Below are positions 1 to 34,278 of a DNA stretch of 34,278 nt, piece by piece (the first letter of the stretch is position 1; the number at the start of each line of letters is the position of its first letter). The stretch is taken from assembly GCA_003990765.1 (NCBI GenBank), contig RBNJ01000280.1:1-34278 (forward strand). Direction: 5' to 3'. The notes under the pieces were generated by a model. It did no database searches, was not told the DNA's origin, and worked only from the letters and a program-made list of their open reading frames with translations. This DNA comes from Jimgerdemannia flammicorona (taxonomy: Eukaryota). Both the position numbers and the translations under genes were made by a program.

Positions 1-408
1 ACTCTCACAGAGTCTCTTGAAGTAGCAGGGGAGGGTGGGTGAGTTCGAAGTATATCTGCCCACAGGCTTACTAGTTCCTTTGCTATCTCTTTGCTTTTGA
101 ACTATTTCGATCTGAGGTTTATTCACTCGAAGATACTGGGTTATTTATACAAGTTTGCTAGCTATGAGAGGGTGGCTAAGTAATAAATGAGTCATTTGGA
201 CTTTGTCGAAATATTTGGACAATGTCTAAATTCTATACTAAATTGGGGTATTTGATTTGGATAATGTCTAAAATTTAGACAATGTCTAAGAATTTAGATA
301 ATATCAAAATCAAGGACTGCTAACTATAATGCTATACTACTTTGGGAATAGGTGCGATCAAGTGTCTATTCCCTATTTCCTTCTTTCAAATCTGGCTGTA
401 CCGTCACA
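1..408 (-). mobile_element. LTR of an LTR retrotransposon (copy 1, truncated by window start; 5' LTR or solo LTR)
   Basis: Close match to 27600-28006, differing mostly by transitions; ends ...GTCACA at 408. On the minus strand a TATA-like GTATAAATA (~142-150) is followed by AATAAA (~118-123). There is no polypurine tract at the 408 junction. Confidence 0.85.
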
Positions 409-420
409 ATATATATATAG

Positions 421-3400
421 ATGAAATCTTGCAAGATAACTTCAACTTTTTTGATATTAGCTTTAACTCTAGCTTTGATTTCATCTCTATCATCTCTATC
501 TCTACCTCTACCTCTATCTCCATCTCTACCTCTATCTCTATTTGTATATTCATATCATCTATCTCTATATTTATCTTCAACTATGATCTATGAAATATAT
601 CTATCTTCAACTATGGTCTATAAAATAATCAATTATACAAAACTTAAGATTTCTGAACTTAAAGCAAAATACAGAGAGTTTAGCCTACTAATTGATAGTA
701 TAAAGAAAGTGCTGATTACAAGATTGTAAGAATTTCAGAATCCTTGCTAAGCTTTATTATTATCTATATTATCTACTAGATAAGCTCTATCATCTATATC
801 ATTTACTAGAAGAGACTCAAATCTACCTTATCTCTATTGAAATATCTATACTATAGACTAGTCAGAGAGACTATATTTACTCAAAGAGACCATCAGTACC
901 TCAACTGTTTCTATCTTAGTTAAAAACAAAACTTGGTTTACTTAATTAATAATACTTCTTCCAATAGCTCAGAGAATATCTTTGTTATTAATATCAATAT
1001 TATTCACATTTAATAGTTTTAAGATAAATGACTAAAATAGTATTAGTAATAATAGTAAAAGATCTAAATATAAAAAATCATATTACTATAAGAAATAATA
1101 AGTAATCAAGATAGTGATATATATAGTTAATGAAGATCAGAGTATATCTGAATATATATTAGGACCAATAGATAAAGCAGTAGATGAGCTATACTCAATT
1201 AGTATACAATATAGTAGTTATAAACTATTAATATATATGATATTATAACTATTAGTTTTTTTTCTATCTCTTTCTCAAGTATGAGATTAGAAGTATATAT
1301 CACTGACATTTTATAGAAATAGTACTATATGAGGTTCTAGACTATGCAATTACATTAGCAATCTGAGTATAGGATGAGATTGATTGATGGAATAAAGAGC
1401 TTATAAAGATAGAACAGATACTATAATATTAGCTTTATTTTGTAACTAAAAAAATCTAATCTAAACTATCATAATCTATACTCAATACTGTTAGATACTT
1501 TTTCAATTTTACCTTTAGCTTCTACATAATGATGAGTTGGTTTCTACTGACTCTTATTACTCATACTATAAGACAAAACTACTACTTTATCACAAATATT
1601 GACAAAAGAGCCATTACTGATCAAATGATAAAGAATTTATTAAGATAGATTTGAAACTCTTATACATATAATAGATATTTTGGATAATAGTTATTTATCT
1701 GAGTATATAGTAAAGAAATCTATCACATACTCCTTTCTCTGCTACCTTACTGGTCACAATGATTTGGTAGGCAATCTTCCAAGTCTACTTTCTACAATTA
1801 TTACCCCCTCTACCTCAGGTTGGTTTGCTGTATCTGTTGCAGAGCAGTAGGAGGGAGGCAATAGTAATGAGTTACCTCTTTATCAGTGTCAGATTGGTGT
1901 CTTCTTTACTTTTTCGTGGTTTCTGGTATCTTTGGCTACATCTGGAGTATATCTGTTTTGGTGCAGCACCTTCTTCCTTTTGCCATCACTAATAAGGTAC
2001 TGTCTCGGTATATCTTGGGCTACATAGGGAGTCAGCTGACCTTGGGCATCAAGTGCTCAGTGTAGATTACTTGCAGGTCCTTGGTATCTGTAGTGGGGCC
2101 CTCTGACTTTGGCAAGCTTCCTGGCAAGTGTGGTTCTGGCGTAAGTGACTGTTTTTCAGATATTGTCAGGATGGGAGGGGAGATGGCTGTCACAGATAGG
2201 AGAAAGAGCAATAATGGTAAACCAGTAGAGTGCCAGGCTGGGGACAGTCATCAGGACTGGGGTGGGTGTTGCTTTGGTGGAGCCTTTTGATTGATATAGT
2301 ATAGTTAGGTAGTAGATATCACTCTCGGCTTCTTTTGGCAGGTTGGCGAGTCAGGCTCCAGTTATCAGGAGGGGTCAGAAGACCTGAGGCTACCTATTTT
2401 AGACATCTTGGCTACACTCAAATAGAACTGGAAGCTGATATGGCAATGTGATCAAGGCCCACAGACTTAAGTAGTGGGGTATTGGGGGTCTCCTCCTGTC
2501 TTATATATAAGTCCTTTACTCACCTCAACTAGGAGAACTAGGCCCTACCCACCATGTTATGCTTTGATGAGAGTTTTTCTTTACCTGTTATTCTCTTTAG
2601 AGTAGTAGAGACTATTCTATTTGGCTCAGGCATATGTAGCCTTATACATACATTGAGTTCTTGGGTGTATACTTTCAGTCATTAGCATATGGTTGGGTTT
2701 CCCCTGGTGGTAGGGAGAGTATGATATATAGAATGAGGTATGGGCTGCTATAGGCTCTACTGTGTCTGGTATGGTCAAGCTGCTGGACAATAGCTAGCCT
2801 AGATTAATGGGGGGGCAGTGCTTGATGAGTGGTGGGGGAGGGTTTTGGCCTATATAGTCTAGGTTCCCTTCTAATAAAAATCTACAGAACATTGAGTCTA
2901 TTAAAAAAAACAAAAAACAAAACAAAAAAACAAAAAACAAAAAAACAAAGAAATCTATAAAAACCAAATAGAGATATATCTGTACTATTAATCCTAGTAC
3001 TTAGACCTTTTTAACTTGATAAATGATTTATTTAATTTTTATTTATTTATTTTATTTTATTTATTTATTAAAAAAAAAAAAAACTTTTTAGGTATTTCTC
3101 TATATAAAAACATAGTTGTTTTTGGTGAAAATAATATTCAACATATTGTCCAGCTGCTTCTTTTTCTTAATAATCTTATTTCATATATCAGCTAGGTACT
3201 GGCTCAATGATGAGATAAGTTTCATTATATACAAATACCTATATATCAGAGAATAAAGAACCTGATCGATAAGTGTTACAAGAAAGCAGCATTGTGATTT
3301 CTAATAATATTTGATATAGTTATTATTTTATGGTTCAATTTGCATTTAATGGTTGGAAAAAAAAAAAGATAAAAAAAGAAGACTCAATAGGCACATAGTG

Positions 3401-3783
3401 TACAAGATGTTGACATAGAGTCATGGTAATTATGATAATTTTTTTTTTTTTTAATTTATTATCATTTTCTTATTCTTTTTCTTTTGTAAGACTCTCTGCA
3501 ATGACAGAACACCCATGCAGTATAAACTCAGTAATTATTTTTTATTAGGGCATTTCTCAATTGATTGCTCAACAAGGCTGAGGAGCTAGGAAAGAAGGTG
3601 GTCATTATTTCTGAGGCATATACATCAAAGACATGTAGTGTATGTGGGTGGATCAATCAGGGGTTGGGCAGTCAAAAGATCTTTCAGTGCTGGGATTGTA
3701 AATGGATAGTAGATAGAGATGTAGATGGCACCCAAGGGATCTTTCTGAGAGGACTTCTGTTTCTCAAAGGGAGATCTCAATGA
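421..3783 (+). pseudogene. Degenerate Fanzor2 (IS607-TnpB-like RNA-guided endonuclease) gene with N-terminal SAP domain, two introns and a LINE insertion
   Basis: Motifs occur in the expected order and most are restorable by C>T/G>A reversal plus a few 1-nt frameshifts. SAP-like 634-726; N-terminal PY-W..SERLYL.KET..KTWF 826-939; MKIRVY(P)..Q..KQ(W)M(G)..(R)LVYN from 1130; V(P)YEVLD ~1322; (F)(RSRKDPTQ)TI at 1441; RuvC-I CTI(D)P(G)T(R)TFLT 2981-3016; FGE..IQ.IV.LL..L..LIS 3121-3183; QRIKNLID.C.KKAAL(W) 3247-3297; RRLNR..V.KMLT(W)SH 3377-3424; intact LLNKAEELG..SEAYTSKTCSVCG..C..C..DRDV.G..GIFLR 3565-3750. Putative introns at ~3019-3091 (donor eroded GT>AT, ends TTTTTAG) and 3426-3548 (GTAATT...TTATTAG). 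Confidence 0.85.
1724..2946 (+). mobile_element. 5'-truncated, degenerate LINE inserted into the Fanzor gene
   Basis: Exact 12-bp TSD AAAGAAATCTAT at 1712-1723 and 2947-2958; AATAAA ~2874 and A-rich tail 2903-2946. ORF2 C-terminal remnants (EGG motif ~1851, NWKLIW ~2426, eroded C-x2-C zinc-knuckle-like ~2546). Higher GC than the flanking Fanzor relic. Confidence 0.8.
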
Positions 3784-3789
3784 AGGTTT

Positions 3790-4080
3790 TGCTTGATGGA
3801 GCTGCCCAGGTTGCGAAACTTGGTGTACGGGGTGAATTTCACGTGCCTGACTAGTGTTGACTAGCCATGGTTAGTGATGCTCGCTTAGACCCATCCGGGT
3901 TCCGCATTTGACATTTTCGAAATTCAAAAGAGACATAGGATGTTGACCTACAATAATTGGAGGGCTTGGGAAGGCTGTATCGGAGGTTGTGTGGCGTGTA
4001 TTTGAGTCGAGCAGCACTACAGTTAGTGTTGGGGCAGAAAAGGACGTTCGGTGCGGAATGCCATAGGTCAAATCTTTCGG
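3790..4080 (+). ncRNA. Candidate Fanzor omegaRNA scaffold / element right end
   Basis: Directly downstream of the RuvC-III/Zn-finger exon and CpG-retaining. Local hairpins at ~3824-3846, 3851-3864, 3867-3894 and ~4013-4030. Crossing long-range helices 3900-3906/4052-4058 and 3937-3950/4064-4076. Ends in TCTTTCGG. Boundaries are inferred. Confidence 0.55.
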
Positions 4081-4340: not shown

Positions 4341-7300
4341 TCACGCTTGCTCTCGCCCGTCGTCATTATCCACGCGTAGTCCGCCCGTGGATGTTGGTGC
4401 ACCGTCTAACACTGCCAGTCCATCACGCGGTGGCATAGGTGTACTACGCGGCGGCACGGATGTATCACGCGACCGTTCCTGCACACCATACAGCGACTCA
4501 ACACCGCTACCCCCCTCCTTGTTCACCGCTGCCTTCGCGCCCCGCCAATCATCGTCATTATTGTACGCGCTGTGTAAAGAGCTAACGTTACTCTGGAAAC
4601 TCTGGGTGGAAGAATTGTGCCCGCCTTGATTGGAGAGAAACGTCGGTGTCAATGGCGAGAGCCGTTGCATGTTGGGATACATATTGTCGAGGTCGGTGGT
4701 GGGCACATTGGAGTCGAAGCCGAGCTCGTCGTAAGGATAGCGGCCGTCATAAGCCGCGTCGTCGTCCTCGACAAATAAGCCGTCGTCCTGATCCTGTAGG
4801 CCAAAGGATAGCCGGCTGAGCTGCGTGCTGCGCTTGTGTTGGAGCGACATCTCGCTCGGCGACGTCAGCGGTGGTTCCACCGCCCTCTCGCTCCCATCGC
4901 CGTACGAAGATCGAAAGCTGTGCGGTGGCGGGATCGACATCGACAGATCGGTCGACATCGATGCGCGCGGCGTGGGTGATGGGTTGTCCCTCCTATCATC
5001 ATCTCCGAGAACGTGGCTTTGTGCAACCTTCTGCGAGCCGCTCTCACTCTCGTCATCATCATCGCCATTCTGGGCACTATACTCAATGCCACCATCCCTG
5101 CTCAAGTTATGAACATTCATGTTAGCGTTGGCCACCACCGTGTTGAGCCCTCTAGGCCCTCTGCTCATGCTGTTTCGTGGCGTGCTCTCGGTACTGCTCG
5201 AGAGACTATCGCGCATCATGTTCTTCACCGTTAGCATGCTCTTCCGCGGGTTTCCGTCGCCGTCCATCCTGGTATCGAATCCGACCCATTGTAGCGACGC
5301 GACGGACCGGTTCCCGGCCGAGGATGCCGAATTCCGCTGCATGCGCCGAGGTGAGTCTGGGATCTCGGTAATGGGCGACGGGAGCTTGCTTGCTGTCTTG
5401 TAGGAGCGGTTGACGAAGAAGGAGCTTGAGCTGCGCTTCGAGCTCGGGCTCTTGCTAGCCCTGGCGCTGGAGGGCGAAACCATGTTGTTGGAGGGCAGCG
5501 TCGGGACGGCGGACGAGGGATTTGAGTCACCGATTGACCTGAACAGTGTGACGGGGTTCACGTTGAGTGTCAGGCGGCGCTTCGTCTTCTCGGGCGCTGC
5601 GGGCCCGGAGGACACGGAGGACAATGCAATCACTGAGCCCTGCGTGCCGTTCGATCCGGTTTCCGAAATGAAACTGGCAGGCGTCGGCGGGACCGACTGG
5701 GCCGAACTGTCGTCGCCGGGGATCTCAGGAAGTTTACCCGAGCCCGTGCTTCCTGCTTCGTTGGAGAGGACGTTGGGCAACGAGCCTTTGCGAAACGCCG
5801 GCATGGAACCCTTTCGCGGCATCGAAGCATTCCCCTCGTTGGTACCCTCGCCAAACCATCCCGATTCTGACGCCGACAAATCCGGGCCTCCACTGCTGGC
5901 GTAAGGAGCAGGATACACACTGTTGAGTTCGGTCATGTTGACGTTCGTACCGAGGCCTGCGTCCAGCCTCACTGGATCTGGGCTGCTGAACAACGAACCT
6001 CTTCCTCCAAGCCACTTCTTTGCCTTGGGTGGAGCTTGCAAGATGACAACTTGATCAACGTTCAGTTTTCCAGGTTGTCCGGTGATAGAACTCGATCTGC
6101 TTCGGAGCCGAGTATGCATCTGGGATGACGGCAGGAGTATGGGAGACTTGCGTTCACGCCTCCTTCGTCGGACTACGCCAACCAAGATCGCCAGACCGGC
6201 GATGACGGCTATGCCCACGCAGATGGCGACGATCGGGCCGAGCCCGATAGAACTGCCCGTGGGGAATGGGGTTGGAGACACTGACGAGCTCGCGGATGCG
6301 GTGATGCCACCCGTGGCGATCGTGGTGGCAGAAGGGTACTGCGCTTGCACGGCTCCTCCCGCTATCCACTTCATCGCGTTGAGATCCAGATAGTAGAACG
6401 CCGAGTCGGCGGTGGTGTTCGTCGCAGTTTGGCCACCAAAGACCATCATGATGCTGGAGTTCGGACCGACCAGAAGAGCGCTATGGCCTGATCGGGCCGA
6501 TGGTGTTAGATTAAAAAGAGGTGCGATAGTGTTCCGCTGTGACCATGACATGGTTGGGAGCTTGCTGACGTCGAGAACCCAGACATCGTTGTAGAGTTGG
6601 TTGGTCAGATCGTTAACACCACCGAAGGCAATGAGGCTCTGATTATCCGGACCAAGGATCATGGTGGCGTACGATCGAGCAGCGGGGCCTCCTGCATGGG
6701 TGTACAGAGGGTCAATGTACGTCAGATTGTTTGTATCAAAAATTGTGCAGTTCGATAGAGGTGCGCTCTTGTCATTCCGCCCAAAGCAGCTGACTAGATG
6801 GTTGCTGACCGCGACAGTTGAATGCCCAGCGAAGGGCTGTGCAGGATGGGCCTTTGGAAAGACGACCGGTGTCCATGCCAAGGTTGTCAAGTCAAGGTAA
6901 GAGATATCCGAGATGACTTTGGGCGTCTTCGGGTCGGGCACCTGACCTCCAATTACAAACACCCTGTTGCCGACAATCGTTGCCGTGTGAGCAATCCTCT
7001 GTGTCGGCGTTGTGCCGGTCGTCTGTACAGTCGTCATGTTCTCGAGCCCCACGTCCAATATTCGGACTGGGTCGGCGAGTATGCTCGCCGGTGATGTCTG
7101 GGTCTGGCCGAAAAGCGTCATCACCTTATTTCCACCAAGACCGACAACACTATGTCCGGTCACTGCGATGCTCAGGTTGAGCGGCTGAGTGAGTTGGAGA
7201 GCGATATTTGTATTCAGGACGTCCGTCGCGATGGTGTTGCTATTGATCAGCGTGCCTCCGATGGTTATCACTCTTGATGAGTCGATGCGTGTCGAGACGT

Positions 7301-7418
7301 GATGGTATCGGGGTAAGATATCGGCCGCGATGATTGAGAAGATGGACAGAAGGCAGAGAACGGTCTCGCCATAACGGAGTCGGCGGTGACGGGAAGGGGG
7401 TATGGATGAGCGAAACAT
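4341..7418 (-). CDS. Type I membrane protein with extracellular Kelch-repeat beta-propeller and long Ser-rich cytoplasmic tail
   Basis: 1025-aa intronless ORF. N-terminal hydrophobic signal (VLCLLSIFSIIAA); Kelch motifs (R.AHTATIVGNRVFVIGG, GHSTV..LVSCFG, PAARSYAT..LIAFGG..LYNDVWVLD, PSARSGHSA..MMVFGG); TM helix PIVAICVGIAVIAGLAILVGVV followed by RRRRRERK. Confidence 0.9.
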   Translation of the reverse strand: MFRSSIPPSRHRRLRYGETVLCLLSIFSIIAADILPRYHHVSTRIDSSRVITIGGTLINSNTIATDVLNTNIALQLTQPLNLSIAVTGHSVVGLGGNKVMTLFGQTQTSPASILADPVRILDVGLENMTTVQTTGTTPTQRIAHTATIVGNRVFVIGGQVPDPKTPKVISDISYLDLTTLAWTPVVFPKAHPAQPFAGHSTVAVSNHLVSCFGRNDKSAPLSNCTIFDTNNLTYIDPLYTHAGGPAARSYATMILGPDNQSLIAFGGVNDLTNQLYNDVWVLDVSKLPTMSWSQRNTIAPLFNLTPSARSGHSALLVGPNSSIMMVFGGQTATNTTADSAFYYLDLNAMKWIAGGAVQAQYPSATTIATGGITASASSSVSPTPFPTGSSIGLGPIVAICVGIAVIAGLAILVGVVRRRRRERKSPILLPSSQMHTRLRSRSSSITGQPGKLNVDQVVILQAPPKAKKWLGGRGSLFSSPDPVRLDAGLGTNVNMTELNSVYPAPYASSGGPDLSASESGWFGEGTNEGNASMPRKGSMPAFRKGSLPNVLSNEAGSTGSGKLPEIPGDDSSAQSVPPTPASFISETGSNGTQGSVIALSSVSSGPAAPEKTKRRLTLNVNPVTLFRSIGDSNPSSAVPTLPSNNMVSPSSARASKSPSSKRSSSSFFVNRSYKTASKLPSPITEIPDSPRRMQRNSASSAGNRSVASLQWVGFDTRMDGDGNPRKSMLTVKNMMRDSLSSSTESTPRNSMSRGPRGLNTVVANANMNVHNLSRDGGIEYSAQNGDDDDESESGSQKVAQSHVLGDDDRRDNPSPTPRASMSTDLSMSIPPPHSFRSSYGDGSERAVEPPLTSPSEMSLQHKRSTQLSRLSFGLQDQDDGLFVEDDDAAYDGRYPYDELGFDSNVPTTDLDNMYPNMQRLSPLTPTFLSNQGGHNSSTQSFQSNVSSLHSAYNNDDDWRGAKAAVNKEGGSGVESLYGVQERSRDTSVPPRSTPMPPRDGLAVLDGAPTSTGGLRVDNDDGREQA

Positions 7419-8392: not shown

Positions 8393-11300
8393 TCATATTG
8401 TTCCTTTATCCTTCGCGATACCACTCAGCGTTTCAGTCAACCGATTCCGTGGCCTGTTGAAGAGATTCAACTCGAGGTCGCTCTCATCACTGAGCTCGTC
8501 CGCTCGGTTACTCGAGTCCGGGGTGGTACGAGTAGAATTTGGAAGGGGGAGGTCCCTCCTGGGGTTAGGTTGCGTGTCTTGAAACCGCTGAATCCATTTG
8601 TCGAGGCTCACGGCGTCTTTGACCTGGAAGTAGAATTCATGGTTGGCGACCCCCGTGACTTGGAAGATATAGTCGTCGTGATTGTTCGTTGTGATCGCCT
8701 TGCATGACATGAATGGATACGATACCGCCTTGTGGGTTTCGCGCTACGGTGATTAAAGCAACGGTTGTGAGCCATCGGTGAACATGACGTAACGAATTGT
8801 TTGGCTGTTTGCGATTTATGCTGCTAGCCTTGGGAATGGGTACAGCACAAGGACGGATTGGTAGAACACTTACATCAATTAACATGAAGTAGCCCATCTT
8901 GGTAATAACTACTAGCCTCTTTGTCTCCCACCGTGAGAAGTAGGGCATATTTTTCTTCTGGATCCTGACGGGTAGCACTCCTTCATGGGCATCGAGAACC
9001 ATGTCAACTCCGTCGAACTTGGGCATGATGGCGCTCAAGGCGATCTTGCTCGTATCCCACGTGGCATGCGTCGGACGCGTCGCACGCGTCGCCGTCGAAC
9101 GAGTATGCTTCTTCAGCTTATGGTGTTTAATGATGGCAATCATCTTTGGTACGAATAGTGCAATCAGGGCGAAAACTGCGGCAAAAAGTAGAGCGCTGAT
9201 GCAAAGGTAATACGACGCCAGGAATTCGGTGCTCGGGAGGAATAGTGTCGGGATGCAGATGATGCCAGCGATCATCATGTTGCTAATGGTACATAACAGG
9301 GTAAAATCGTGTTCAATTTCGGTTCACTGTGGCATATTGAACGTTCACGTATACGAGCAACTTACTAGCTGACAAACGCGATCTGCTTTGATTCTCCGTA
9401 CATATCATCCACTCCACGAGTCTGTGCATTGGAGTCGCAAGTGTGCAGGTTTTAGCCACAGCATTCGACCTTCAACCTCGGCGGTTAAGTGTAAATATAA
9501 ATGAATTACCTTGTAAGCCAAAATTGATGCGACAAGCACCAGCGATCCCAAATAAATAATTAAAAAGATCTCAAAAAGGGACGTTCCCGTACGACCCACA
9601 GTGTAGTATCTTGAATTACAAGTCCAAGCCGATGACAAAGTATTAACCGCGGTTAGCATCGGCACCGGCGGATCCAGGATTAACCACAACCCGACTATAA
9701 CTAAAGCTCCCGCCAGCAATGCGATAACGATGGTCGAAAGATATCGATTGGTGATGGTATTCGACTTCAAGGCGAACGAGTTGTCGAAGATGCGGTATAT
9801 CCTAAAAGTTTTGGCAATAATGTTGCCCAATACTAGGACAAACGACACGGCCAAACAAATGGGTCGCAGCGAGCAGATCGCCACGGTCGGAATCAAGGTG
9901 AACGACGCGATGGATCCGAACGCGAACATGAGACCCAGCAGTTCAAAACAGCAGAAAAGTGGGCTATGCAAGGTCAATCGTGTCTCAGTTAGATGGATGC
10001 CGTGTGCAATTCGAGTGCTGACGCCCATGCCACCTTTTCCAGGAACTCACCTTGAAGCTTTGACGACAGCGGCCTTTCGGTATAGAATGATAATCAACAT
10101 CACGACGAGACAACATAGAGCTCCAAAAGCACAGATTGCCAAGATGATGACAATGCCAAGGTTTATGAGAAGCGGGTTCACAACTGTAACAATATGAACA
10201 TGTAGTGGATTGCTGAGAACGGAAGCTCCGTACAAGAACAAATAACAACTGGCAGATATTTTGGTAGTGAAGATACACACTTGCAGGATTGGCACAATCC
10301 TTTGGAGTCTGTGAATAGTGGAGATGCCGGTTAGTGGAGATGCCGGTTGGACGTGATATGAGATCAAGAGACTTGATGCGGATAGTGGCGAAATTGGTTT
10401 ACATTGGAGGTTCCGTCATGAAAGTACGGTGGTAATACGAGGTTGAATGAACCGTCATAATTGGTAGCAAATCTAACTGCGGTGCCGTTCTTGACATAAA
10501 GATATTCGAAATTCCTGTACAATCCAAAAAAGACGCCAGTCAGTGCCAGTGAATCTCATTTTGAGAGAAAAACTTTCCTTCGCACTGCATCATAAACTTG
10601 ATAATAGCAATAGACACACACGCCGCAGAGAGGTCACCTAAGGAGTAATTTGGCGACAATTTGATGAGTGATGCATCTCTCATGATTCAAATTGTGGGTA
10701 TTCGATCAGATTATGAAGGTGCTTACCAGTCGCAGTAAAATTCATTAGCCCTACATACAAGGATGAAAAATAAAAGTTAGCAAAGGAGTATATTTATTCA
10801 AGTTGTTTTTAACCCGATACAAGTTTGTTTACCCACCTGCTGGACCGGTCCAATTCGTATTGAAAAGCAGAGGCGTCAACGGGCCTGCGTTCTGGTTGAA
10901 AAGCCCTTTGCTTAAATCATGAAGGCCAGCTTGTCGCCCTCCAGGGTAGTTATTAAGTATCTTTTACACAAAGTTAAATACAAAAGGGTTGGTGAGGAAC
11001 GTGCGTTACTTTCGAACTATACATTGCAGACCGCATTTCTTTCTTTCCAGGGTATTTGCTTACTTGGTTTATTCCCAATGCAAGGACGTACATGCATGAA
11101 TAGGCTATGAAAAATTGCAGTGTATAAACCAAGTTATTTCTCTTTGCCATACAAAAATGCGGTTCATATTAACAAATACAATAAAACAATAAATACCTTG
11201 TGGCTGATTATGTGGCAAAAAGTTGGGTGCCTGGCCATAGAATCTATCAATTTAATATTGGAATATAATCTTTGTCAACAGATATTTGTTGATCATATAT

Positions 11301-11675
11301 AATCGCCGCAATTCTGAGCGTGACGATACATACATGTTCGATGGCAATTGAGACCACTTGGCAAGGAATTGGTCGTATTCAGGTAATCCTGTCACTGTGT
11401 AACAAAGGTTCGGTGAGCATACGCGCCTACAAAGTAATGTCAAGAAACATTGTCAAACTGTACGTACAATTCCACACTTGGTTCAGCATAATGATCCCAT
11501 CAAACGGTTTGAGCAAATCTGTCGCATTTGTCGCAGCTGTGGCGGTGTTGTTCAGGACTGCAATCGCAATGTCTTCCGCGATGGGATTGAGAGTAATCCA
11601 GACATAGTCGTCAATCATGAATCCCTGTTTTCTAGATTTGCGAAATGCGTTGAGAAAATGTGAGCATTGTTTTAC

Positions 11676-11739
<64 letters not shown>

Positions 11740-13141
11740 GCAAGCAACACATGCACATGTAATGATATAAATCTTACTGTGCAGCTATAAAAAAATGGGC
11801 CTGATCAATTGGTCCGATTTGTATTAAGACAATCACCCTCGCCAAAGAGCTATTCATCGTTTGCCATACAGCTAGGGATTGCAATGTATGTCAATCAGTA
11901 TTCATTTACCCAGCGGAACAAGAAAACAATAAGGTAATAAGTAACTCACGTTGTAAAGCACTATTTCCTAATATAGATGTCGTTTCCTGAAAATCAACTG
12001 TTATGCCTGCGTCCCTGCACGTCGATACTAACTGGGAGGTCACTGTAACGAAGTCATTCAATGCTGAATGTTAGGATATACGATACGTCACCGACGTTGA
12101 TTTGACAACACCGCAAAACCACACTCACGGGATTTCGTATTATCGTCGGGCGAGTATACGACGCCAATGGTCTTCCAGTTTTGATTTTGGAAGAGAGCCA
12201 CCAATGGATCTCCAAACGCCGCTGTGGTGATCGTCCGAAAGAATGTTGGATATTGAGACTTGTCGCTCAATTGTTCGTTGCCTGAAATGAGTATAAATGG
12301 GCAAGCAAACCAAGGTCTTAATTAGTCGATATAAACATAATGATTTTAGCAGCAGATCGAATAACGATTGTCAAGCCATTATAGCAAAGTCAACACGGGC
12401 TCAGAAATGAACATTTACCTGCAGCGAAAGAGCATTGAGGAATATTGGTTTTCCCTGTCATAGCTGCCGACAAGAACGTCGACACGGAGTACGCATCACC
12501 TATTACGGCGCTGTAGGGCATTGGAAACGTTCATTTGTTTTCGAGAAATCATATAGTCAAAATGCGCTCCAGGAAAAATGACATACCTCACATTTGATCG
12601 AATCAGATCTGATGTGGCAAAGATTGACTTTGCTTTGTCATTAGCGCTCTAAAATAAGAATAGAATAAAAATACAAGGGATCAGTTTCAAGTATGGATTT
12701 TGGTCATAAATTTCGATGGATATCTGATCGCACCTGATATCCATATAGTCCGTAGGTGAGATTGACGTACACGCCAGGTATAAGGCTCCTATTGTTGATC
12801 TCCATAGCGGCTAATTGTATCGCTGCAATGCCACCTCCGACCAGGGCTTGCACAGCGGTATCATTGGGGATGAGTTTAGACGGGTCCGGTATTACGATAC
12901 CGACGTTCAGCTGCGCTAGGTCCGCCAAATTGGATGGTAAAATAGGAAGGTTGATCGGGAGCGAGGCATTCGCTGTTGCGGTTGGAGTTGGAGCACTGCT
13001 CGAGGAGACTCCTGGCAACGAGAATGATGTTACCGATGGGCTCGATGCGCTGGACGATGGGGCTGCTCCTCCTCTCCAGAAGGTACAGCAGACAACTGCG
13101 GCAGATAGGAGATAGCTGTATATCCGACGGGCTTTGGTCAT
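8393..13141 (-). CDS. Class C (GABA-B/glutamate-receptor-like) GPCR: signal peptide + Venus-flytrap (ANF_receptor) + 7tm_3 + C-terminal PH-like domain; about 20 exons
   Basis: Manually spliced with GT-AG introns in consistent phase. Exons include 12734-13141, 12587-12648, 12419-12510, 12129-12281, 11950-12042, 11778-11871, 11468-11631 and micro-exons 10727-10750 and 10622-10637; the last exon ends at 8393. VFT motifs: AIQLAAMEIN..LIPG, AVIGD..S, IPQCSF, LSDKSQYPTFFRT, WKTIGVVY, YVWI, AYSC. 7TM motifs: VKASSPLFC, IIAKTFRIYRIF, DPP, ESKQIAFVSYN. Confidence 0.88.
11677..11733. repeat. Poly(A/T) homopolymer in a GPCR intron
   Basis: About 57-nt A run; no flanking TSD found. Confidence 0.9.
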
Positions 13142-15948
13142 GTTACGACGGGGACGATACGATGCGATAAAGAAAACTCTTCAGAGTCAAGAGAGGCGTT
13201 GTTTTCGGGTTCTTTGAATCTGCGGATGGGCTGGTCTTGAAAAAGAGTCGATCGTTGTCACAACTCTGAACGGGTATAACCACTACCAGTATTTGTTCGA
13301 ATGGCTGCGTCTGGCGGCTTGTGTGACACAATTACATTTTGGCAGCGTAGAAAAACCGGTGATACAAGATTGTTTTCTTTGGCCTTGTGCCTTTGTTAAT
13401 TCTTCATCAGTACTAAACTAAGCGAAGATCTCCATTTAACCCTGACGTCATTATTGGTCTTGTGCCTTATTCAAAAGACGTTTTGTTAAGAATCCGCGAT
13501 TTAATGTTCATCTATGTTTTGTACGCGTTATAAACACTAGCCGTCAAACGTTTTTGGATTCATCGTGGTTGGTCCAAATATATTATCCACGATGCATAAT
13601 TTCTTCCACGCGATTCCATGAGGGGGTATTTGATACCGAGAATGGACATAATGGACATTCTCGAAGGAGTGTGCATGTGGACGACTACTGCATCTTCCAT
13701 CGATACCTGAGCCAGACTGTCGACGATGTTCAAGATAGAGAGCGTCCGTATAGCCAAGATTCAAACAGGTTTGTTAGACAATGATCGAGAAACATTCTTG
13801 GTTCATTAGAAACGTGTGTTCGAAAAACCCCATGTGAGATTGGCCACCATACCAGCTCCTTTCTTGTCCCCTTGCAGGGTTCGGATTAAGAGGATAGTTA
13901 GGGTACAAAAGATTTGATATCTGGGGCCTTGATGTGACAGGACAAAGGAAAGCCCTCGGAGATCCATTCGTTTAGTGTATGTTTCATGTCACACGCTCAC
14001 GTAATCTGCCAAACCGACAAAGGGGTGTCCGATGCCTATGTTGACATGCCCCACACATATCGGCTGGTCCCGTCGGGCCGTTGATCCGTCCCGTTATGGG
14101 TCCGACCGCCTGTTAAATTGAAACCCTTGGGTACCACAATATAATGCGAATATACGAATTGAAGATCCGTAGGGGGGGGGGGGATTTTACAGCCCTTGCC
14201 GATGGACCACGAGGATAGTTTCATTCGTACGAAAACTCTACTCAAGCTGTTCGTCACTGTGGTGGACACATTCTGAAAATGTAACTTATTCTTCTGGACA
14301 AGCATGTTATCCAGTTCTATCAGAATAGAATTTTGTCTCGACAAATTGGGGGAACAATACCGAAGTCAATCATATAGAGAACAATTGTTCATGGTGATTT
14401 TTGGTTTATGCTTTTTTGAATAAACAGCCAGCTCATGTAAGTCCATTGTCAGCTGAACCAGGCTCGAAACAGGATATCGTTTGACAAAAGTTTATGAAGT
14501 GGTTTGCCAAAGGCCTCTTTGTTGGTCCATGCTACTCCAAGTTTCTCCTTATGTGGAAATTTCACAGAGGATTCGCGATACTTTGGTATGTGTACACGGC
14601 AGCATAAAGATGAACACTCGAAAAAAGCACCTCGTCCATCAATGTGAGCAAATAGGCATTGGCCTTCAGCCAACTCATTAAAGTCCAACGAGGTCTAGAT
14701 ACTTTCCGCCCCTCGCCCCCCGCCCCTTTTTTTGAGGGTGGGAAGGGGGGAAGGATATTGTTGTATTCGTTGATTCTGTACACATTATTGCAGCGATCCA
14801 TGTAATTGGGGTTCAGAAACTGTTAATTATATTCCAGACGGCACGAACAATACCACTTCGCACGGAGGGATTCTGACGGACGAACGAGAATAACGTCGCA
14901 CGTCACATTCGCCGAGGGATCGGACAGGTTCCAAGGGCGACATTTACAGTTCATCCCATCGTCTCGCGTTTTCCCTCGATTTCGTAGCACCAGTTGGGCA
15001 GGACCCCGCTCCTAGGGGCGGAGGGCATCTCCTCTCGGCATTCTACTCCTTGGATCACCATATTCCCTCGGCCTCCCGCCATATGCAAGGACCGCAATTG
15101 TACAAAAGAAACCCCCAACCACCACTCACTCGCTCTGGGATTTCCCGAACCTCGGCCAGTCCCAAAAGCGCCTTTTTTTCGCGTGGCTCTCTATGTCGAT
15201 CACTAGGGGGAGGGGGCGGGAACTCTCACGTGCGAAATATATTAGCGGGTGGGTCCTGTGTGTGTCACGTGAGCAACATCCTTATCTCCTCGAAAGTGTG
15301 ATTTAAACCGTTTAAAATACTAGGTGACATTTTTTTTTTTTTTTTTTTTTTGTCGAAACGGCTGCGGCGCGCGCTCGTGTCCTACGGGCGGTGAGAATTG
15401 CCTAATAAGAGCATAGGACGTGGGATGATGTAAGAGGGTTATAGAGCAGCCCAGACCGCATACACACGCAATAGGCGATAGATGATGCCCGAGGCGTAAT
15501 AGGCAGATCGGATTACGAGAGACGTTGATAAATGGCGGCAGGCCAAACGTAGAAATGGGGGTGATTTTAGTAATGGGCAAGGGCCCATTTCTTACTTAGA
15601 GTTGGATTAAGCCCAGTTGATTCGTGATGCGGGTTTGTTTATATTTGGCTCTACCGTTTTATTTTTGCGAGATGAGATCTGTGCTTTTGTTGATTGCAAG
15701 GGTTTGTTTGTCGCCATGATCTGAGCTTAGCCTCGCGCCTCATCAGGAAGGCCCATGTCGTAATCGAGCATTGGGAAAAATCGTCCTTTATCTTTGAAAT
15801 GTATTTTCAAATCATTTTTCGGTTGCGTTTTGTCTAGTCCTCTTCTGCAAGCGCTTGTTGTTTGGTTATATTTAGTTGCGCTATTATAATTCGTAGAAAT
15901 CGCTTTCCCTCTTTGATACTTGTCTCATTGTCAAATGTAATTATATAC

Positions 15949-15953
<5 letters not shown>

Positions 15954-16026
<73 letters not shown>

Positions 16027-16040
16027 GTCACTTGGACTCA
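15954..16040 (-). mobile_element. Extremely 5'-truncated LINE insertion (about 17 nt of 3' end plus poly(A))
   Basis: Perfect TSD TAATTATATACACTTT at 15938-15953 and 16041-16056. The insert on the minus strand reads TGAGTCCAAGTGACTAT-(A)n, matching the terminus of the LINE at the window end (AGTCCAAGAGACTAT-(A)n) at 14/15 nt. Confidence 0.85.
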
Positions 16041-18092: not shown

Positions 18093-18460
18093 GATGTAAG
18101 GATCAACGCGTAAACACACGTAAACACACCTCCTTACCGCGGTGGCTTGCTGTGACTGAATTTCATAGGCTTCGCGATATAATTATGCTTTTGCATTCTG
18201 TTCATGAACTTGAGCCCACCTCCCCTTTCTCTCTCTTTCTCTCTTCCTCCCTTTCTCTTCCCTTTCTCTCTCTTTCTCTCCCTTTCTCTCCCTTTTTCTC
18301 CCTTTCTCTGCACCACGGCCACGACGCTGCTCCTTTCTGGTCTCTGGCCCAACAAGAAAAGGAGAGTCATGTGACCCGGTGATGCAGGGCCGTGCCATGT
18401 GCCATGTGCCATTTCCCCCATTCCCATTGTTCAATTTGCTCCCCCATTTAAGCTTTGGAA
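18093..18460. promoter_or_regulatory. Short divergent (bidirectional) promoter region with CT-rich tract
   Basis: 368 bp between head-to-head ATGs; pyrimidine tract ~18218-18309; GAGTCATGTGAC at 18364-18375. Confidence 0.5.
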
Positions 18461-20489
18461 ATGTCATCCCCCAGCCTCTACGACCCTCCGGTCTCGCGCA
18501 AGGCACTCATCCACGCAATACGACCACACCTGCCGCCACAACACCTCGAACCCCATCCCAATAACTCCCCAGGCCCACCGAGCCCCGTTCCTTACCACCT
18601 CCAAGGTGCCTCCATTACAAACGACATCTACAAGATGCACAACGACCTCCTCACCACAACCCTCCCGCGCTCTCGGTCAGATATCTCCCTTGCATCAAGC
18701 CACCACCCCGTCTCAGCCACCGATCCTGTCCTCGACAATGTCGCCAAACCCGGCGGCTTCCGTCGCTTCTTCGTCCACTCCCTCCGCCCCCCTACCCCAA
18801 CACCAGACCCCGCGCCCACTCCCGCGATCTCGCAAACCTCGACCTACCAGTCCTTCCCGGATCAGGAGCTCTTCGAGGAGCCCCCTCCGGGCCTGCCCAA
18901 GCGCACGCGCCACTTCCTCGAGTGGCTCGCCATCAACTACATCTTTGATCGTTTCGCTGGCGAGGACCTCTCTGAGTCCGAAGGTGAAGACGGCCTGTCC
19001 GATGACGAGAACCTTCCCTACGGCCAAGACGACCTCCGTCCGCCTTCTCGCGCGCTCTCCGAGCGCGCCCCGTTACTCCGACGACGGTCTTCGTCCATGG
19101 GCGAAGGCCTGCCGCAAGCCAAGGCCACCACGCTAAAGTCCTTCTTCCTGCTACTCAAGGCGTTCATCGGCACAGGAATCCTGTTCCTGCCCAAGGCGTT
19201 TTCAAACGGCGGCGTCATTTTCTCTGCGGTGTTCTTGTGGTTCATTGCCGCCGTATCCATGTTTGCGTTCCTGCTACTTGTGCAATGCAAAGAGGTTATA
19301 ACGGGAAGCTTTGGCGATATCGGGGGGACGCTGTATGGGAAGTGGATGCGGATGGCCGTGCTGTTCTCGATTGGGTTGTCGCAGGTTAGGATTGTGTAGT
19401 TTTGTGGGCGTGTGTACAGTTGGGGTTTTCCGATGCGCGGGAGGTTGTATACCATCATTTAAGTCCCTCTTGCTTCCTTCCTACCCCTTCCTGATCTGGC
19501 TCCATCACGTCCTCCACCAGATTGGCTTCGTCTGCGGTGGCAGCATCTTCATCGCCGAGAACCTTCAGCTCGTTATCAAAACTATTACGGACGGTGCCGT
19601 CGTCATTCCTTCCAAGACCCTCCTCCTCATCCAAGCCCTTCTCCTGACCCCGTTAGTCCTCATCCGCAACATTGCACGCCTCTCCTTCACTGCCCTCCTC
19701 TCCGATGTCCTCATTACCTTTGGCCTCGCCGTCCTCGTCTACTACGACGTCCGCAAACTCCTCCTCCCTCCCTCCTCCTCCTCTAACGACCCCTACCCCA
19801 CTTCCTACCAAACCCTCACCCCAGGCCCGGACATCGTCTGGACCATCAATATGACCTACTACCCGGTCTTCATCGGCACGGCTGTCTATTCCTTTGAAGG
19901 TATTGGTCTCATCATCCCCATCCGTGACGCCATGCTCCACCCGGATCAGTTCCCTCTCGTCCTCGCCGGCGTCATGACCCTCGTCGCACTCGTCCTCTGC
20001 CTCATCGGCGGTCTCGGTTACATCGCCTATGGTTCCGCCGTTCAGACCATCGCCCTCTCAAACCTGCCCCCAGAATCGCTCGTTTCCGCCATCCGATGCC
20101 TTTACGCCTTCGCTATTATCCTCTCTGGTCCTCTTACCCTCTTCCCGGCCACCCGCATCGTTGAACAGGCCGTTTTCGGGCACCGCACCGGAAAACACGA
20201 CTGGCGCGTCAAATGGCAGAAAAACTTACTCAGAATCGCCGTCGTCGCTGCATGCATGGTCGTCGCCTACCTGGGCGCGTCGGATCTCGACAAGTTTATA
20301 AGCTTGATCGGATCCGTATGCTGTACGCCCCTCAGTTTCATCTTCCCAGCCCTTTTCCATCTCAAGGCCGTAGCTAGGACCAGGGTCGAGAGGATCGCGG
20401 ACGTGGCACTGTGTGTGTTTGGCGTCATCGTTATGATCTTCACCATGTCCGTTACGGCAGGCGAGTGGGCTGGAGCGGGCTGGTGGTGA
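18461..20489 (+). CDS. Vacuolar amino acid transporter, Aa_trans/AAAP (SLC36/Avt3-Avt4-like); 2 exons, ~630 aa
   Basis: Exons 18461-19384 and 19521-20489 (GTTAGG...CACCAG, phase 0). Motifs PGGFRR, FAGEDL, LLKAFIGTGILFLPKAFSNGG, GSFGDIGG.LYG, GTAVYSFEGIGLIIPI, KWQKN, LDKFISLIGS.CC.PL.FIFP..FH. Confidence 0.92.
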
Positions 20490-21020: not shown

Positions 21021-22622
<1,602 letters not shown>

Positions 22623-25346: not shown

Positions 25347-26366
25347 CATGCCCACCGGGGTTTTCCCCACCCCTCCCCCATTTTTTTTGGATTTTATATT
25401 TGCGACACAATGGAAGTCGCATAGCGAAACTCCCAAAAGCTCGACAATAAACCTGTTTCGATTTAATAAAAATCCATACATGAAGGCCTTAAACACATGT
25501 TGTATCCGAATCTATAAACTCTAGAGCTACAGGCAATCATTCTGATTTTGCACATGGTTTCCTTATAGTAGGATCTAGTCCCAAGCATTTGCTTAGTATG
25601 TATGCCAATGTACAAGATAAACCAAGTAATAAAATATTCAAGATCTTTTATCAAGTGTAGATTTTATTATCTCTCTACACAGTCAATATGTTTATTATTA
25701 AAGAAGAGTAGAAGCAGAACAGTGTTTCTTATCAGAATATTGTAAAATTGCAGACTTATCTCATAAAGTCTCATATATATTAGATAATTGAGAAGTGATA
25801 TGGTTATTTTAAATATATTTTTATTATTGGTTTTATTGTAAAAAATTTTATATTAAATTTAAGATAAATTATAAAAATTAGCCAATTATAGCTCTTTATT
25901 TAATATAGATTTAAAATATAATTTTTAGAAAAAAAAAAAATCCAATTATAATATAGTAAATGCTTAACTTGAAAAATATATTAAATTTCTTTATTTTGAA
26001 TTTTTAATCTTAACTTCTCAAAGTTAGTTACAAAGTAAGTTTGAAAGATATATATATCTACTTGTAAACTACTTAGTTTTTTTCTTTGAACTATTTTAAT
26101 TTAAGATTTATTTACTTATAATTCTGAGTTATTTATATAAGTTTACTAACTATAATATTTTCTATATTATATTTAAGAATTAGATTTAGATATTACAATC
26201 AAATATTTATTTTCTAATTTATTTTTAATTTAAATTATATATTATAACTTCTTTAAAATATTGATTTAAACTTTTAAGTTTTTATATTATTCAATTTATT
26301 TAATTATACTTTTTAATAATATATATATATTTCTATATTTAAATAAAGTTTTTTAAAACCACTTCT

Positions 26367-27530: not shown

Positions 27531-28006
27531 TGTAACATAGTGGATGCTTACTCTTGAAAGTACGTTGGATTTCTATATCTTGAAAACTTGACTGTTCTGA
27601 CTCTCGCAGAGTCTCTTGAAGTTGCAGGGGAGGGTGGGTGAGTTCAAAGTGTATCTGTCTACAGGCTTACTAGTTCCTTTGCTATCTCTTTGCTTTGAAC
27701 TATTTTGATCTGAGGTTTATTCACTCGAAGATACTGGGTTATTTATACAAGTTTGCTAGCTATGAGAGGGTGGCTAAGTAATAAATGAGTCATTTGGACT
27801 TTGTCGAAACATTTAGACAATGTCTAAATGTTATACTAAATCGGGGTATCTGATTTGGATAATGTCTAAAATTTAGACAATATCTAAGAATTTAGACAAT
27901 GTTGAAATCGAGGACTGCTAACTATAATGCTATACTACTTTGGAAATGGGTGCGATCAAGTGTCTATTCTCTATTTCCTTCTTCCAAATCTGGCTGTACT
28001 GTCACA
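27531..28006 (-). mobile_element. Complete 476-bp LTR (copy 2; 3' LTR of a minus-strand element)
   Basis: Termini TGTAACA...TGTCACA (TG...CA with a short inverted repeat). Minus-strand purine tract AGGAGGAAG(T) abuts the LTR at 28007-28016. Repeat of 1-408. Confidence 0.88.
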
Positions 28007-28397
28007 ACTTCCTCCTGAATGGATGGTCTCATCCCTAAGGCATCTATTCAAACTCTCAGGCTTCAACAGTCTGTATGGTCTTGTACTGTGCAATTTGCTG
28101 CATGACTGTTTCCCAATGATGTCTTCTCACTTTCTCGAAGTCAGTGGGAGTTACTCCTCTCAGGTGGTCTATTGCTGTTTCATCTTCTCGGAAATAACTT
28201 GTGGATCCTTTTGGCAATAGTGATCTGTGAGTAGGAGAGTTGACACGTGGCAATCCAGTCCTCCTTGGTCTTTGCTGGATCCTGATTGAGCACCTGTCCA
28301 AGCTTGAAGTACTCTTGGAATTCTGCCCGATATTGATAGGCTCTAAAGTGTAAGATCTGAGAGAGATGAGTCTGCACCACCTCTCTCCACTACAATT
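28007..28397 (-). mobile_element. 3' internal region of the LTR element with a frameshifted ORF remnant of unknown type
   Basis: Lies between the PPT/LTR and the LINE 5' end. Minus-strand frames ...AEFQEYFKLGQVLNQD...ITIAKRIHKLF / EDETAIDHLRGVTPTDFEKVRRHHWETVMQQI. Confidence 0.5.
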
Positions 28398-28458
28398 CAC
28401 ATTACACACACTTTTCAACATACTTTTGAAGCATTTATTGGAGAAAGATACTAAGGCA

Positions 28459-30492
28459 ATGTCAACCAGCAAGCAAGCTGACATGTATACTAGGTCGGGT
28501 GGACCTGGAGCCTTCGACTGGCAGACTGTTGGGAGAGGATATGGATTGGGAATGGGGTCTTTCGGTGGCTCGAGTGGGCAGGGCAGCTCGGGTAGTAGAG
28601 GTGGCACTGGTGGGGGGGCTGGAGAGAAGTAGGGGAGGAGCTTTGCGGACATGCTGAAGGGTGGGGGCTGGCCGATGGGCACTCATGGTGGACCGGCGGG
28701 AGGGAAGGGGAAGCAGAAGGATGGAACCGCTGGGGGAGCTGGACCTTCGCTGGGGAGAGGTGGGGGAAGTGGAGGGACGGCTGGGGGTAGTAGTGGGACT
28801 GCTGATGGTGGTGTGACGGTGAATCTGGAAAAAAAAAGAGATGTGACGATTGATGGCCAGAGGGGGCAGGGGCTCCCAATGCGGAAGGGGGACCTGGCTG
28901 ATGGTGTAACGGGACTGGCGGTGGCCCCGTTGCTCAAGAAGTCAATCTCGGAGTTCGCGGCTACCTTGTGCTTCCGAGGCTTGGCAGTGATGATGAGGAT
29001 GGTCCTGGGGCTTATCTCGAAGCAGGTGGCTGGTGCGGCCTCGATAAAGTTCTTGAAGAGCATGGAGGGGGTTGAGGTGGGCTTTGAGGAGGCAGGCCTA
29101 CTGGACGAGGCCATGAAGACAGGAGTGGTGGTTGGGGAGGTAGTAGTCCCCATGGTTAGGTGCTTGAGGTGGGACCCCAGGGTCATGCAGCTTCTGGTGA
29201 GGGGGGTGCCCACAGTGACTAAGGAGGAGACTAGGAGGAGGGTGGAGGAGGTGATGGTTGAGTATGGTGACGTGGTGGACATTGGATTTCAATTGTGGGA
29301 GGGGATGACTATCAGGATGGGTGACATCGATGTTAGGATTCGGTTGGCAGAGAAAGAGGCCACAGGGAAGCCGAGTGACTGGCCCTCAGTGCTGATGTGG
29401 GGGGCTGTCATCTGCAAGGTGTCGAGGGTGAAGGGGAGTGAAGAGGAGGAGGAGGACTTGTTGGAGGTGCTGGAGGAGTTGGGTGGTGCTGTAGAGAGGA
29501 GGGCAAAGGCCTGGAAACTGTTTGAGGAATCGACACATCTGGAGGTTGTGGGCGGGAGGCGTATCCGTATGGATAAGAAGCAGTGGGAGTGGATCCAGGG
29601 ACGCAAGAGACAGAAGGAGCTGTTGGCGGATATGACAGGTAGGGGGAAGAAGCAGTCAGGTGAAGCTGAGGAGTCTGGGGGTGCTGAGGCCAGTGTCTGG
29701 GCTAGTAAAGGAGGAGAGGAGGTAGAAGCGAAGGAGGCAGGGGCTGGGAAGGGGCTGGTCAAGGACCCATTTGCTGATGGTACCTTTGAAGTGTGGGAGC
29801 CGGAGTTGGATGCCACCCCCCCCCCACTTATCAGGAGGGGCCCAGTGGGGATGTGAGGGAGGCAGGAGGATACACGGATGCAGGGGGCCCAGCAGGTGTG
29901 CTTTGGGGTCCCTAATGTGGCTCAAGGGGGTCAAGTGGTGGCAGTTGGTGAGGATGAGCTGGTGGATGTCCCTGAGGAGGAGTGGGATGAGGCTGCTAGT
30001 GTAGGAGCTGATACTACGATGTTGGATGCAGGGCAGCTGGGGACTCCAGGAGGGAAAGAGGTGGGGAACTTGTTGTGAGTATGCAAGGTGATGGATAACC
30101 TTGCAGCAGAAGCATTGGGGAAGGTAGATCTGCGGGCGATGCCTGAGGAGTATTGGGCAAGGATCCTGTATGGGGATGGAATGGTGGAGGCGCTGAAGGT
30201 GGAGATTCTGGTGATTTTGCTGGAGGAGGAGGGATATGAGGTGGATGAGGTGAGGAAGGCAGACCTGGGGGTGGTCGCTGCTGAGTGGGCAGCCTACTGT
30301 TGGGCAGAGCGTCGGGGTCTACAGCTCTGGCAGGAGACATGTCTGGAGTATCGCGAGGATTTTGAGGAGCGTGAGGATGGGGCAATGGTCGAACTTCTGG
30401 GGGAGTTGGAGGCACGGGAAGCTGGGGAGAGGGAACTGGCTGCTGAACTTAACTTGGACCTGGTGCAGGAGAGGCAGGATGCCGACTTATAG
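28459..30492 (+). pseudogene. LINE ORF1 (gag-like), disrupted
   Basis: ATG 28459, Gly-rich N-terminus, SFADMLK, RRM-like VRGVP...EYGDVVDI. In-frame stop at 28630-28632, frameshift at the C-run ~29816-29826, stop at 30076-30078. Confidence 0.7.
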
Positions 30493-30524
30493 AGGGTGGG
30501 CTTTGCTATATATCATTATTCTTT

Positions 30525-34183: not shown

Positions 34184-34278
34184 GGGGTGGGATCATTATA
34201 ATTATATAGAATAGATTGGTAATAAAGGGCAGTCCAAGAGACTATAAAAAAAAAAAAAAAAAAAAAAGGAAAAAAAAA

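Follow-up and report, generated by a model that had tools for sequence, protein, structure and literature searches.

The window analyzed here, a 34,278-nucleotide (nt) contig from Jimgerdemannia flammicorona (RBNJ01000280.1, assembly GCA_003990765.1), contains near its left end the remains of a eukaryotic IS607-type element. Judged from its sequence, the segment from 410 to 3918 is a pseudogene of a Fanzor2-type nuclease within such an element, and this whole copy, from about 410 to 3918, is hypermutated by transitions; the region of 421-1230 is AT-rich, with a GC fraction of 0.25. A first-pass annotation of the same DNA had proposed that a SAP DNA-binding domain is fused in frame to the N terminus of the nuclease. 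We find instead that the locus is a dead Fanzor2/IS607-type element of the ordinary kind, with a SAP-like motif that is unproven yet not dismissible. The joint reading that we prefer, with slightly better than even confidence, is that of a dead IS607-type Fanzor2 copy whose SAP-like peptide most likely bears a chance, below-threshold resemblance to the domain. For the peptide itself, chance resemblance in a hypermutated, lineage-specific 5' segment is the most likely explanation, and we put it at around even probability. One outcome of checking the annotation was that the N-terminal extension common to pro-Fanzor TnpBs and Fanzor2s overlaps the recombinase gene tnpA.

The nuclease was identified from its C-terminal part. 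The 72 C-terminal residues, encoded at 3565-3780, match Pfam PF07282 (Cas12f1-like TNB) with 56.5 bits (E 3.1e-15; cut-off, 26.3). Eleven short metagenomic proteins (P0001-P0011) are 69 to 78% identical to these residues, and scanning of metagenome contigs with P0001 yielded 21 loci. Among the latter is a nearly intact relative, L001 (3,698 nt, 85% identity), which over the last 72 residues is 75% identical to the window, compared with 77 to 78% for the best relatives. L001 has matches to MerR (E 1.4e-7) and to Resolvase (E 1.8e-8 and 3.3e-4); these lie ahead of a frame that matches HTH_OrfB, a helix-turn-helix (HTH) family (E 1.3e-8), and overlap that frame. Its TnpA frame, a MerR-type HTH followed by Resolvase, is broken by a 55-nt GT..AG intron. 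After splicing, a second frame reads through a poly-Pro tract, PYWNARAADWSRRLYLPRET..., KSWFS, a basic stretch, and MKVRVYPN, which belongs to the TnpB HTH.

Comparison with L001 established the identity and anatomy of the element. In sliding 60-nt pieces, the DNA resembles L001 from 830 onward with z of 7 to 9. Frame 1 at 835-1095 matches the spliced L001 Fanzor N terminus in tblastn (36 of 100 residues identical, E 3e-11), and the DNA of the 1130-1723 part aligns to L001 1549-2063 at 65% identity. Across 2959-3813 the sliding z is 10 to 20, falling to about 0 to 1 in two AT-rich, intron-like stretches at ~3017-3090 and ~3427-3547. Both are absent from the coding sequence of relatives and, together with the 55-nt L001 intron, point to eukaryotic gene structure. 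No similarity to L001 was found past 3919 in the sliding comparison. The tail that precedes this point, at 3814-3918, would be the guide-RNA/right-end region. Identification of a Fanzor2 nuclease that is now a pseudogene, already proposed in the first-pass annotation, is borne out by the PF07282 match and by the frame 1 match to L001. Among the profiles relevant to that proposal, PF07282 was recovered, SAP scored below threshold, and HTH_OrfB_IS605 gave no match on the read-through of 1133-1723, a stretch that aligns to L001, whose own HTH scores. Introns vary between copies: the window lacks the first two of L001 (1068-1122 and ~1487-1540; window site, 1185-1200), an intron after RuvC-I is common to both (~2140-2190 was also compared), and the window has an extra AT-rich stretch past ...SHG that L001 and P0001 do not have.

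The RuvC-II Glu lies six residues ahead of the first zinc-finger Cys (SEAYTSKTC; the translation reads ...SEAYTSKTCSVCG), and a Glu shifted to this position is described as a Fanzor/pro-Fanzor signature in PMC13565253 and PMC10711439. A DRD motif is also present. At RuvC-I, the window reads CTINPST and L001 CAIDPGV; DPG is thus absent as read, but both substitutions, D>N and G>S, would result from G>A, so the window is compatible with a DPG ancestor.

Fanzor2s of eukaryotic IS607-type elements are known from Bao and Jurka (2013; PMC3627910), and these elements are named IS607EU in PMC13565253. The window resembles such Fanzor2s in its TnpB-type C terminus with zinc ribbon, shifted Glu, DRD, putative HTH, and introns, to which L001 adds a serine recombinase. 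It differs from them in being a pseudogene with at least three frameshifts, split by a retroposon, with an unrecognizable tnpA 5' half and an extra segment at 410-800. Fanzor2s are reported to originate from cyanobacterial pro-Fanzor IS607 TnpBs (PMC10711439 and its preprint; PMC13565253). Consistent with this origin is the distribution of the PYW/LWLP/SWF motif, which is found in P0134 (Borealophlyctis), P0136 and P0137 (Diversispora), P0257, P0331, P0253, P0281, and P0014, as well as in a big cyanobacterial TnpB family of ~525 residues. In Cyanobacteriota, the pro-Fanzor TnpBs (Yoon et al. 2023, PMC10711439), here P0014 and ~2,660 relatives, one of them from Calothrix, carry PFW...LWLPT...SWFS. 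They are 49% identical to the window over the C-terminal 72 residues and overlap tnpA in the same way, but they are bacterial and lack introns, the basic stretch resembling a nuclear localization signal (NLS), and hypermutation.

The N-terminal extension of the nuclease lies in frame 1 of the window. As the first-pass annotation stated, this frame holds PY..W, SERLYL, and KTWF (LPYLY*NIYTID*SERLYLLKET...KTWFT, with asterisks for stops), and a single frameshift joins it to the HTH. KIRVYLN follows in the next frame at 1130, and a TA run at ~1115-1127 contains the shift. Of the 241 codons of frame 1 at 409-1131, 10 are stops; the other two frames have 23 and 26. What the annotation did not include is the overlap with tnpA, a gene revealed by the MerR and Resolvase matches of L001. 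In frame 3 of the window, the weak TnpA remnant SLLKYLYYRLVRETIFTQRD matches the L001 TnpA with 20.4 bits (E 0.024), and its tail scores 19.6 bits; a frameshift-tolerant alignment supports the remnant, in frame 3 and then frame 1. The Fanzor2 frame likewise runs in frame 1 to 1095 and in frame 2 from 1130. Both frames therefore shift by +1 between 1095 and 1130, which confirms the frameshift. The 5' half of tnpA was not recovered: Pfam Resolvase and MerR had no match in the frames of 409-1133, and the best candidate for the catalytic-Ser motif YxRVSSxxQ, KYIYLQLWSIK* at 596-628, was equaled in 2 of 40 shuffles (DNA z 0.9) and is not significant.

The same arrangement is found well beyond this copy. 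In L001, the intron at 1068-1122 restores the TnpA and Fanzor2 frames alike. The only ATGs in 601-800 of that locus are the tnpA start at 669 and two in the Fanzor frame, at 787 and 790; L001 may therefore express two proteins from one mRNA by leaky scanning, which we offer as a lead. Among 49 intron-free loci, 34 had a TnpA motif ahead of the TnpB match and out of frame with it, and in 33 of these 34 (some loci are duplicates) the open TnpB frame spans the DRLxRF motif. The open TnpB frame covers 255 to 695 nt of tnpA (median, 509) in 25 distinct loci; because the stretch was chosen by its openness, its length carries the evidence. Synonymous shuffling of the tnpA codons gave means of 1.2 to 7.5 stops in the overlap, and stop-free outcomes made up at most 0.4% in 23 of the 25 loci. 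These results demonstrate that the first ~150 to 200 residues of pro-Fanzor TnpBs and Fanzor2s are encoded within tnpA in the +1 frame (L014, L016, L022-L052, L001, L003, and the window). Examples are the overlaps at 193-690 in L014, 622-1486 in L001, 1-700 in L003, and 784-1191 in the window. The LWLPTKTD-type motif is the other-frame reading of the DRLxRF region of TnpA. No mention of this overlap was found in the available parts of PMC10711439 and its preprint, PMC3627910, PMC10530073, and PMC13565253. Two database open reading frames (ORFs), P0250 and P0297, carry the Fanzor HTH in a single frame together with pieces of the TnpA frame (GYIYARVSS; ELCQDILAINTVFVCR) and could be either decayed, frameshifted copies or real frame-switching products.

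The window copy has decayed through directional mutation and insertion. Where it differs from L001, the window has T/A against C/G in 113 of 178 mismatches at 1202-1719 and in 100 of 182 at 2960-3805; the opposite direction accounts for 30 and 34. Most changed sites are CpA (43 of 113 and 33 of 100) or CpG (37 and 29). With CpG nearly as frequent as CpA, the pattern is unlike classic CpA-only repeat-induced point mutation (RIP). The TpA/ApT ratio of the AT-rich region of 421-1230 is 1.09, compared with 0.64 to 0.66 in parts of the window with normal GC content. Two further frameshifts are found, in an A run at ~3365-3375 and near 3765. Joining the nuclease across 1723 and 2959, as the first-pass annotation had done, proved sound: identical 12-mers, at 1712-1723 and 2947-2958, bracket an insert whose tail is A-rich. 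This insert has a GC fraction of 0.43 and is not hypermutated, indicating that it arrived after the mutation episode. Hypermutation ends sharply near 3550, within one gene (GC, 0.24 at 2959-3560 and 0.46 at 3561-4080).

The data show what the element is and how it is built, as well as the tnpA overlap and the frameshift; the role of the N-terminal extension and any ancestral state of 410-800 we infer. In intact relatives, one stretch of DNA encodes TnpA and Fanzor2 in different frames. TnpA, with its MerR-type HTH and Resolvase domains, mobilizes the element, and Fanzor2 is the RNA-guided nuclease. The first ~200 residues of Fanzor2 (Pro-rich, PYW...LWLP...SWF, basic and NLS-like) are overprinted on tnpA; next come the TnpB-type HTH and then a split RuvC and its zinc ribbon. 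In the window, 805-1230 corresponds to the conserved N-terminal extension and HTH, disabled by C>T/G>A hypermutation and the frameshift, and 410-800 is a repeat-rich segment cut off on its left by an unrelated repeat.

It is in this last segment that the SAP-like peptide lies. The peptide at 634-729 reads exactly as annotated in frame 1, which is open from the ATG at 421 to a TAA at 727. When frame 1 of 409-1131 was read through with X at stops, Pfam SAP (PF02037) scored 16.2 bits (E 0.0081). The match covers profile positions 1-35 of 37, has no gaps, and retains the hydrophobic and basic positions. This score falls short of the Pfam gathering cut-off of 23.9, and the raw pieces score 12 to 14 bits (E 0.18 and 0.034). 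In a search of PDB sequences with the 42-residue peptide, phmmer returned nothing significant (best E, 0.76); a SAP-bearing exoribonuclease appears at E 1.4, which is likewise not significant. The fit to SAP that the first-pass annotation described holds to the extent that the peptide is the best position in a motif scan and aligns at 16.2 bits; it is below the cut-off, no relative examined has SAP, and the fusion is unproven. The predicted length of ~640 residues agrees with the usual length in the clade, ~610 to 650 residues even without SAP (P0257 has 647), but the SAP part of the total is unproven.

Two other arguments that had been made for the fusion lend little to it. The statement that the frame contains only transition-type stops is true but uninformative because every stop is one C>T or G>A step away from a sense codon: TAA from CAA, TAG from CAG or TGG, and TGA from CGA or TGG. 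When reversal of transitions was allowed in the motif scan, 3 of 8,970 positions reached the 13 of 15 scored by the peptide, so the argument from transition reversal adds little. The ATG at 421 is not supported as the proposed start. A repeat at 1-409 has a second copy at 27600-28007; the two part at 409/28007 (22 of their 24 differences are transitions), so that the ATG adjoins the junction, 12 nt from the point of divergence, and is preceded by a TAG at 418-420. It is therefore no demonstrated start. A third piece of the repeat, at 26085-26153, is degenerate and AT-rich and is 79% alike over 70 nt.

SAP was also sought in relatives. None of 57 relatives with at least 70 residues before the HTH, picked from 150 found by exhaustive HMMER with P0135, had SAP at E <= 1e-3. 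Precomputed domains held no PF02037 among the matches listed (14 of 14, 120 of 2,661, and 120 of 358), and in L001, L003, L014, and L016, searched in three frames each, there was no SAP match at E <= 0.5. A scan of viral contigs gave 41 loci, none near enough to be informative about SAP (at most 59% identity over short segments and 48% over long ones). The Fanzor literature cited above for the overlap, in its available parts, does not mention a SAP domain; N-terminal regions are described there as variable or disordered, with NLSs (PMC10711439, PMC3627910, PMC10530073, PMC13565253). A text search of the available literature likewise found no paper that names Fanzor together with a SAP domain. 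At the DNA level, thirteen 60-nt pieces of 410-829 all gave z <= 1.1 against L001, and 628-745 gave z = -0.7 against the L001 tnpA region, where positive controls gave z = 10 and 25. Because 410-800 does not align, it is not the 5' half of tnpA found in L001 but DNA that either replaced this half or is unrelated. A Pro/Ser-Leu-rich tract in frame 1 at 460-545 occupies the position of the relatives' poly-Pro tract (DNA z ~1).

Several results weigh against chance resemblance and could be due to a true SAP-Fanzor2 fusion, in which the tnpA 5' half was replaced by a SAP module in the Fanzor2 frame, upstream of PYW, giving a nuclease with a chromatin tether and without recombinase that was later hypermutated. 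SAP is the sole Pfam match at E <= 0.5 in the three forward frames of 409-1133; its E of 0.0081 applies to the single frame 1 read-through against 24,736 families. None of 33 AT-rich control read-throughs, from six frames of several regions, exceeded 12 bits (the only match at E <= 0.5 was YqgH, at 11.7 bits), so the match is not accounted for by composition alone. In a 15-position motif scan of 8,970 positions, the peptide ranked first as read (11 of 15; next independent position, 10), although the residue classes were fixed after the peptide had been seen and the test is thus post hoc. In a search of the ESM Atlas with residues 66-101, the two top-ranked clusters were Rho_N and SAP, each scoring 0.81, where scores under 0.9 are leads only by the calibration of the tool. 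The Rho_N and SAP families belong to one clan. At both positions of the conserved turn glycines of SAP, the window reads Ser (AGC at 682-684 and AGT at 697-699), so this feature of the motif is missing as read; each codon follows a T, which is compatible with a G>A change of GGC or GGT in the commonest mutated context (CpA, on the opposite strand), in which 7 of the 12 reversals proposed in the first-pass annotation also lie. The peptide shares strand and frame with the conserved extension, and stops are fewest in that frame both across 409-828 (4 in 140 codons, compared with 12 and 10) and across 544-729 (1, compared with 5 and 8). In addition, the AT content of 410-800 matches that of the Fanzor body, which would fit membership of one repeated unit, and a recognizable tnpA 5' half is missing.

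A precedent for such a fusion may exist. The closest full-length relative, P0134 from Borealophlyctis nickersoniae (790 residues; same clade, 61% identical to P0001), has an intact frame with an FHA domain at 34-91 (E 1.9e-12) and an HMG box at 197-251 (E 2.6e-8), ~30 residues upstream of the PYW motif, which is the equivalent place. This module is FHA plus HMG box, not SAP, and the gene model is automatic; if the model is right, P0134 is a precedent for a chromatin-binding add-on at this position, a further point against chance. An ESM Atlas search with residues 262-790 of P0134 returned TnpB clusters only. Long N-terminal additions are also seen in P0141 (900 residues) and P0205 (1,006 residues, with helicase domains in the precomputed list). 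SAP is combined with an RNase-H/RuvC fold in Ydc2/Cce1, a mitochondrial Holliday-junction resolvase that is neither RNA-guided nor transposon-borne.

Despite these points, we consider a true fusion doubtful, albeit a real contender. The SAP score is below the Pfam cut-off, and L001, practically as near to the window as the best relatives, is without SAP, as are all the relatives scanned. Three stops and a repeat-ridden stretch separate the SAP-like motif from PYW, and the N terminus cannot be defined because the repeat cuts the element at 409. An AlphaFold2 (AF2) single-sequence model of 598-726 is one continuous helix over residues 4-42 (predicted local distance difference test [pLDDT], 95.9), with no helix-turn-helix; with a mutated turn and no alignment, this is weak evidence either way. 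As the locus is a dead copy, a SAP-Fanzor2 cannot be shown from the window. A broader version of the same idea, which strikes us as unlikely, is that the window descends from a recombinase-less Fanzor2 ancestor in which a SAP/HeH module replaced the tnpA 5' half; taken with P0134, this would amount to repeated capture of chromatin modules at a single site immediately upstream of PYW in this clade. A natural SAP-Fanzor2, if it existed, would be a compact eukaryotic RNA-guided nuclease already tethered to chromatin, with bearing on target access and editor design. P0134 is the better test case, as a natural Fanzor2 with a chromatin module if its gene model is right.

Alternatively, the peptide might be a SAP relic from outside Fanzor2. 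The element would then be truncated at ~800, and 410-800 would derive from another element or gene fragment that happens to match it in strand and frame. Homology to L001 is indeed lost sharply upstream of ~800-830, and the surroundings are a mosaic of inserted DNA (1-409, a repeat; 1724-2958, the retroposon; and 26085-26153, the degenerate repeat), to which the SAP signal itself can be added. This origin is nonetheless improbable: strand and frame would agree by chance only about 1 time in 6, no other Pfam family was found in six frames of 409-1133, and the Pro/Ser-Leu-rich tract sits where relatives have their poly-Pro tract, although its DNA z is not significant. An origin of the SAP likeness as a by-product of tnpA in the other frame was rejected because the equivalent frame of L001 has no SAP match and the DNA cannot be aligned. 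Separately, TnpA motifs could be placed by eye on 545-745 in several mutually exclusive ways (the SAP-like peptide as helix A, a linker, or YxRVSS at "VRISES"), all of which were rejected after shuffle tests. Chance resemblance is the reading that we favor for the peptide, at about even odds; the features of the element and of the remainder of the window are collected in Table 1.

Table 1. Positions of the Fanzor2/IS607-type element, its parts and insertions, and neighboring genes in the window
Feature	Position	Strand	Remarks
Unrelated left-bounding repeat, outside element	1..409	.	94% copy at 27600-28007
AT-rich segment, GC ~0.25	410..800	+	(ATCTCT)n tract 492-576; 30-nt tandem repeat 566-627 (Tandem Repeats Finder [TRF])
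SAP-like peptide, frame 1, sub-threshold	631..735	+	Pfam SAP, residues 75-109 of read-through
TnpA C-terminal-half remnant, frame 3, overlapping Fanzor2 frame	784..1010	+	Tail in frame 1 at 1126-1191, past frameshift
Fanzor2 N-terminal extension, frame 1	805..1095	+	PY..W, SERLYL, KTWF, basic KRSKYKK; RIP-type stops
Frameshift, extra bases in TA run	1115..1127	+	Fanzor2 and TnpA frames both +1
Fanzor2 HTH (KIRVYLN...) and REC/WED part, frame 2, hypermutated	1130..1723	+	
Retroposon-like insertion, A-rich tail	1724..2958	.	12-bp target duplication 1712-1723/2947-2958; GC 0.43
Fanzor2 RuvC-I and RuvC-II/zinc-ribbon/RuvC-III	2959..3813	+	PF07282; sliding z against L001
3' noncoding tail, L001-homologous	3814..3918	+	3799-3918 against L001 2802-2876: z 4.6 and 11.6
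Kelch-repeat protein	4341-7418	minus	
7tm_3 receptor fragment	9405-10028	minus	
Amino-acid transporter	18455-20489		
Triosephosphate isomerase	21723-22427	minus	

Outside the element, homopolymer runs of A and T (~55 to 90 nt) stand in inverted orientation at 11674-11768 and 15935-16030, flanking ~4.2 kb. The right end of the window, 28008-34278, has a G-rich strand with a GC skew of +0.26 to +0.48 over 6 kb. An ORF at 31382-33619 matches the reverse transcriptase family RVT_1 (E 8.8e-26).

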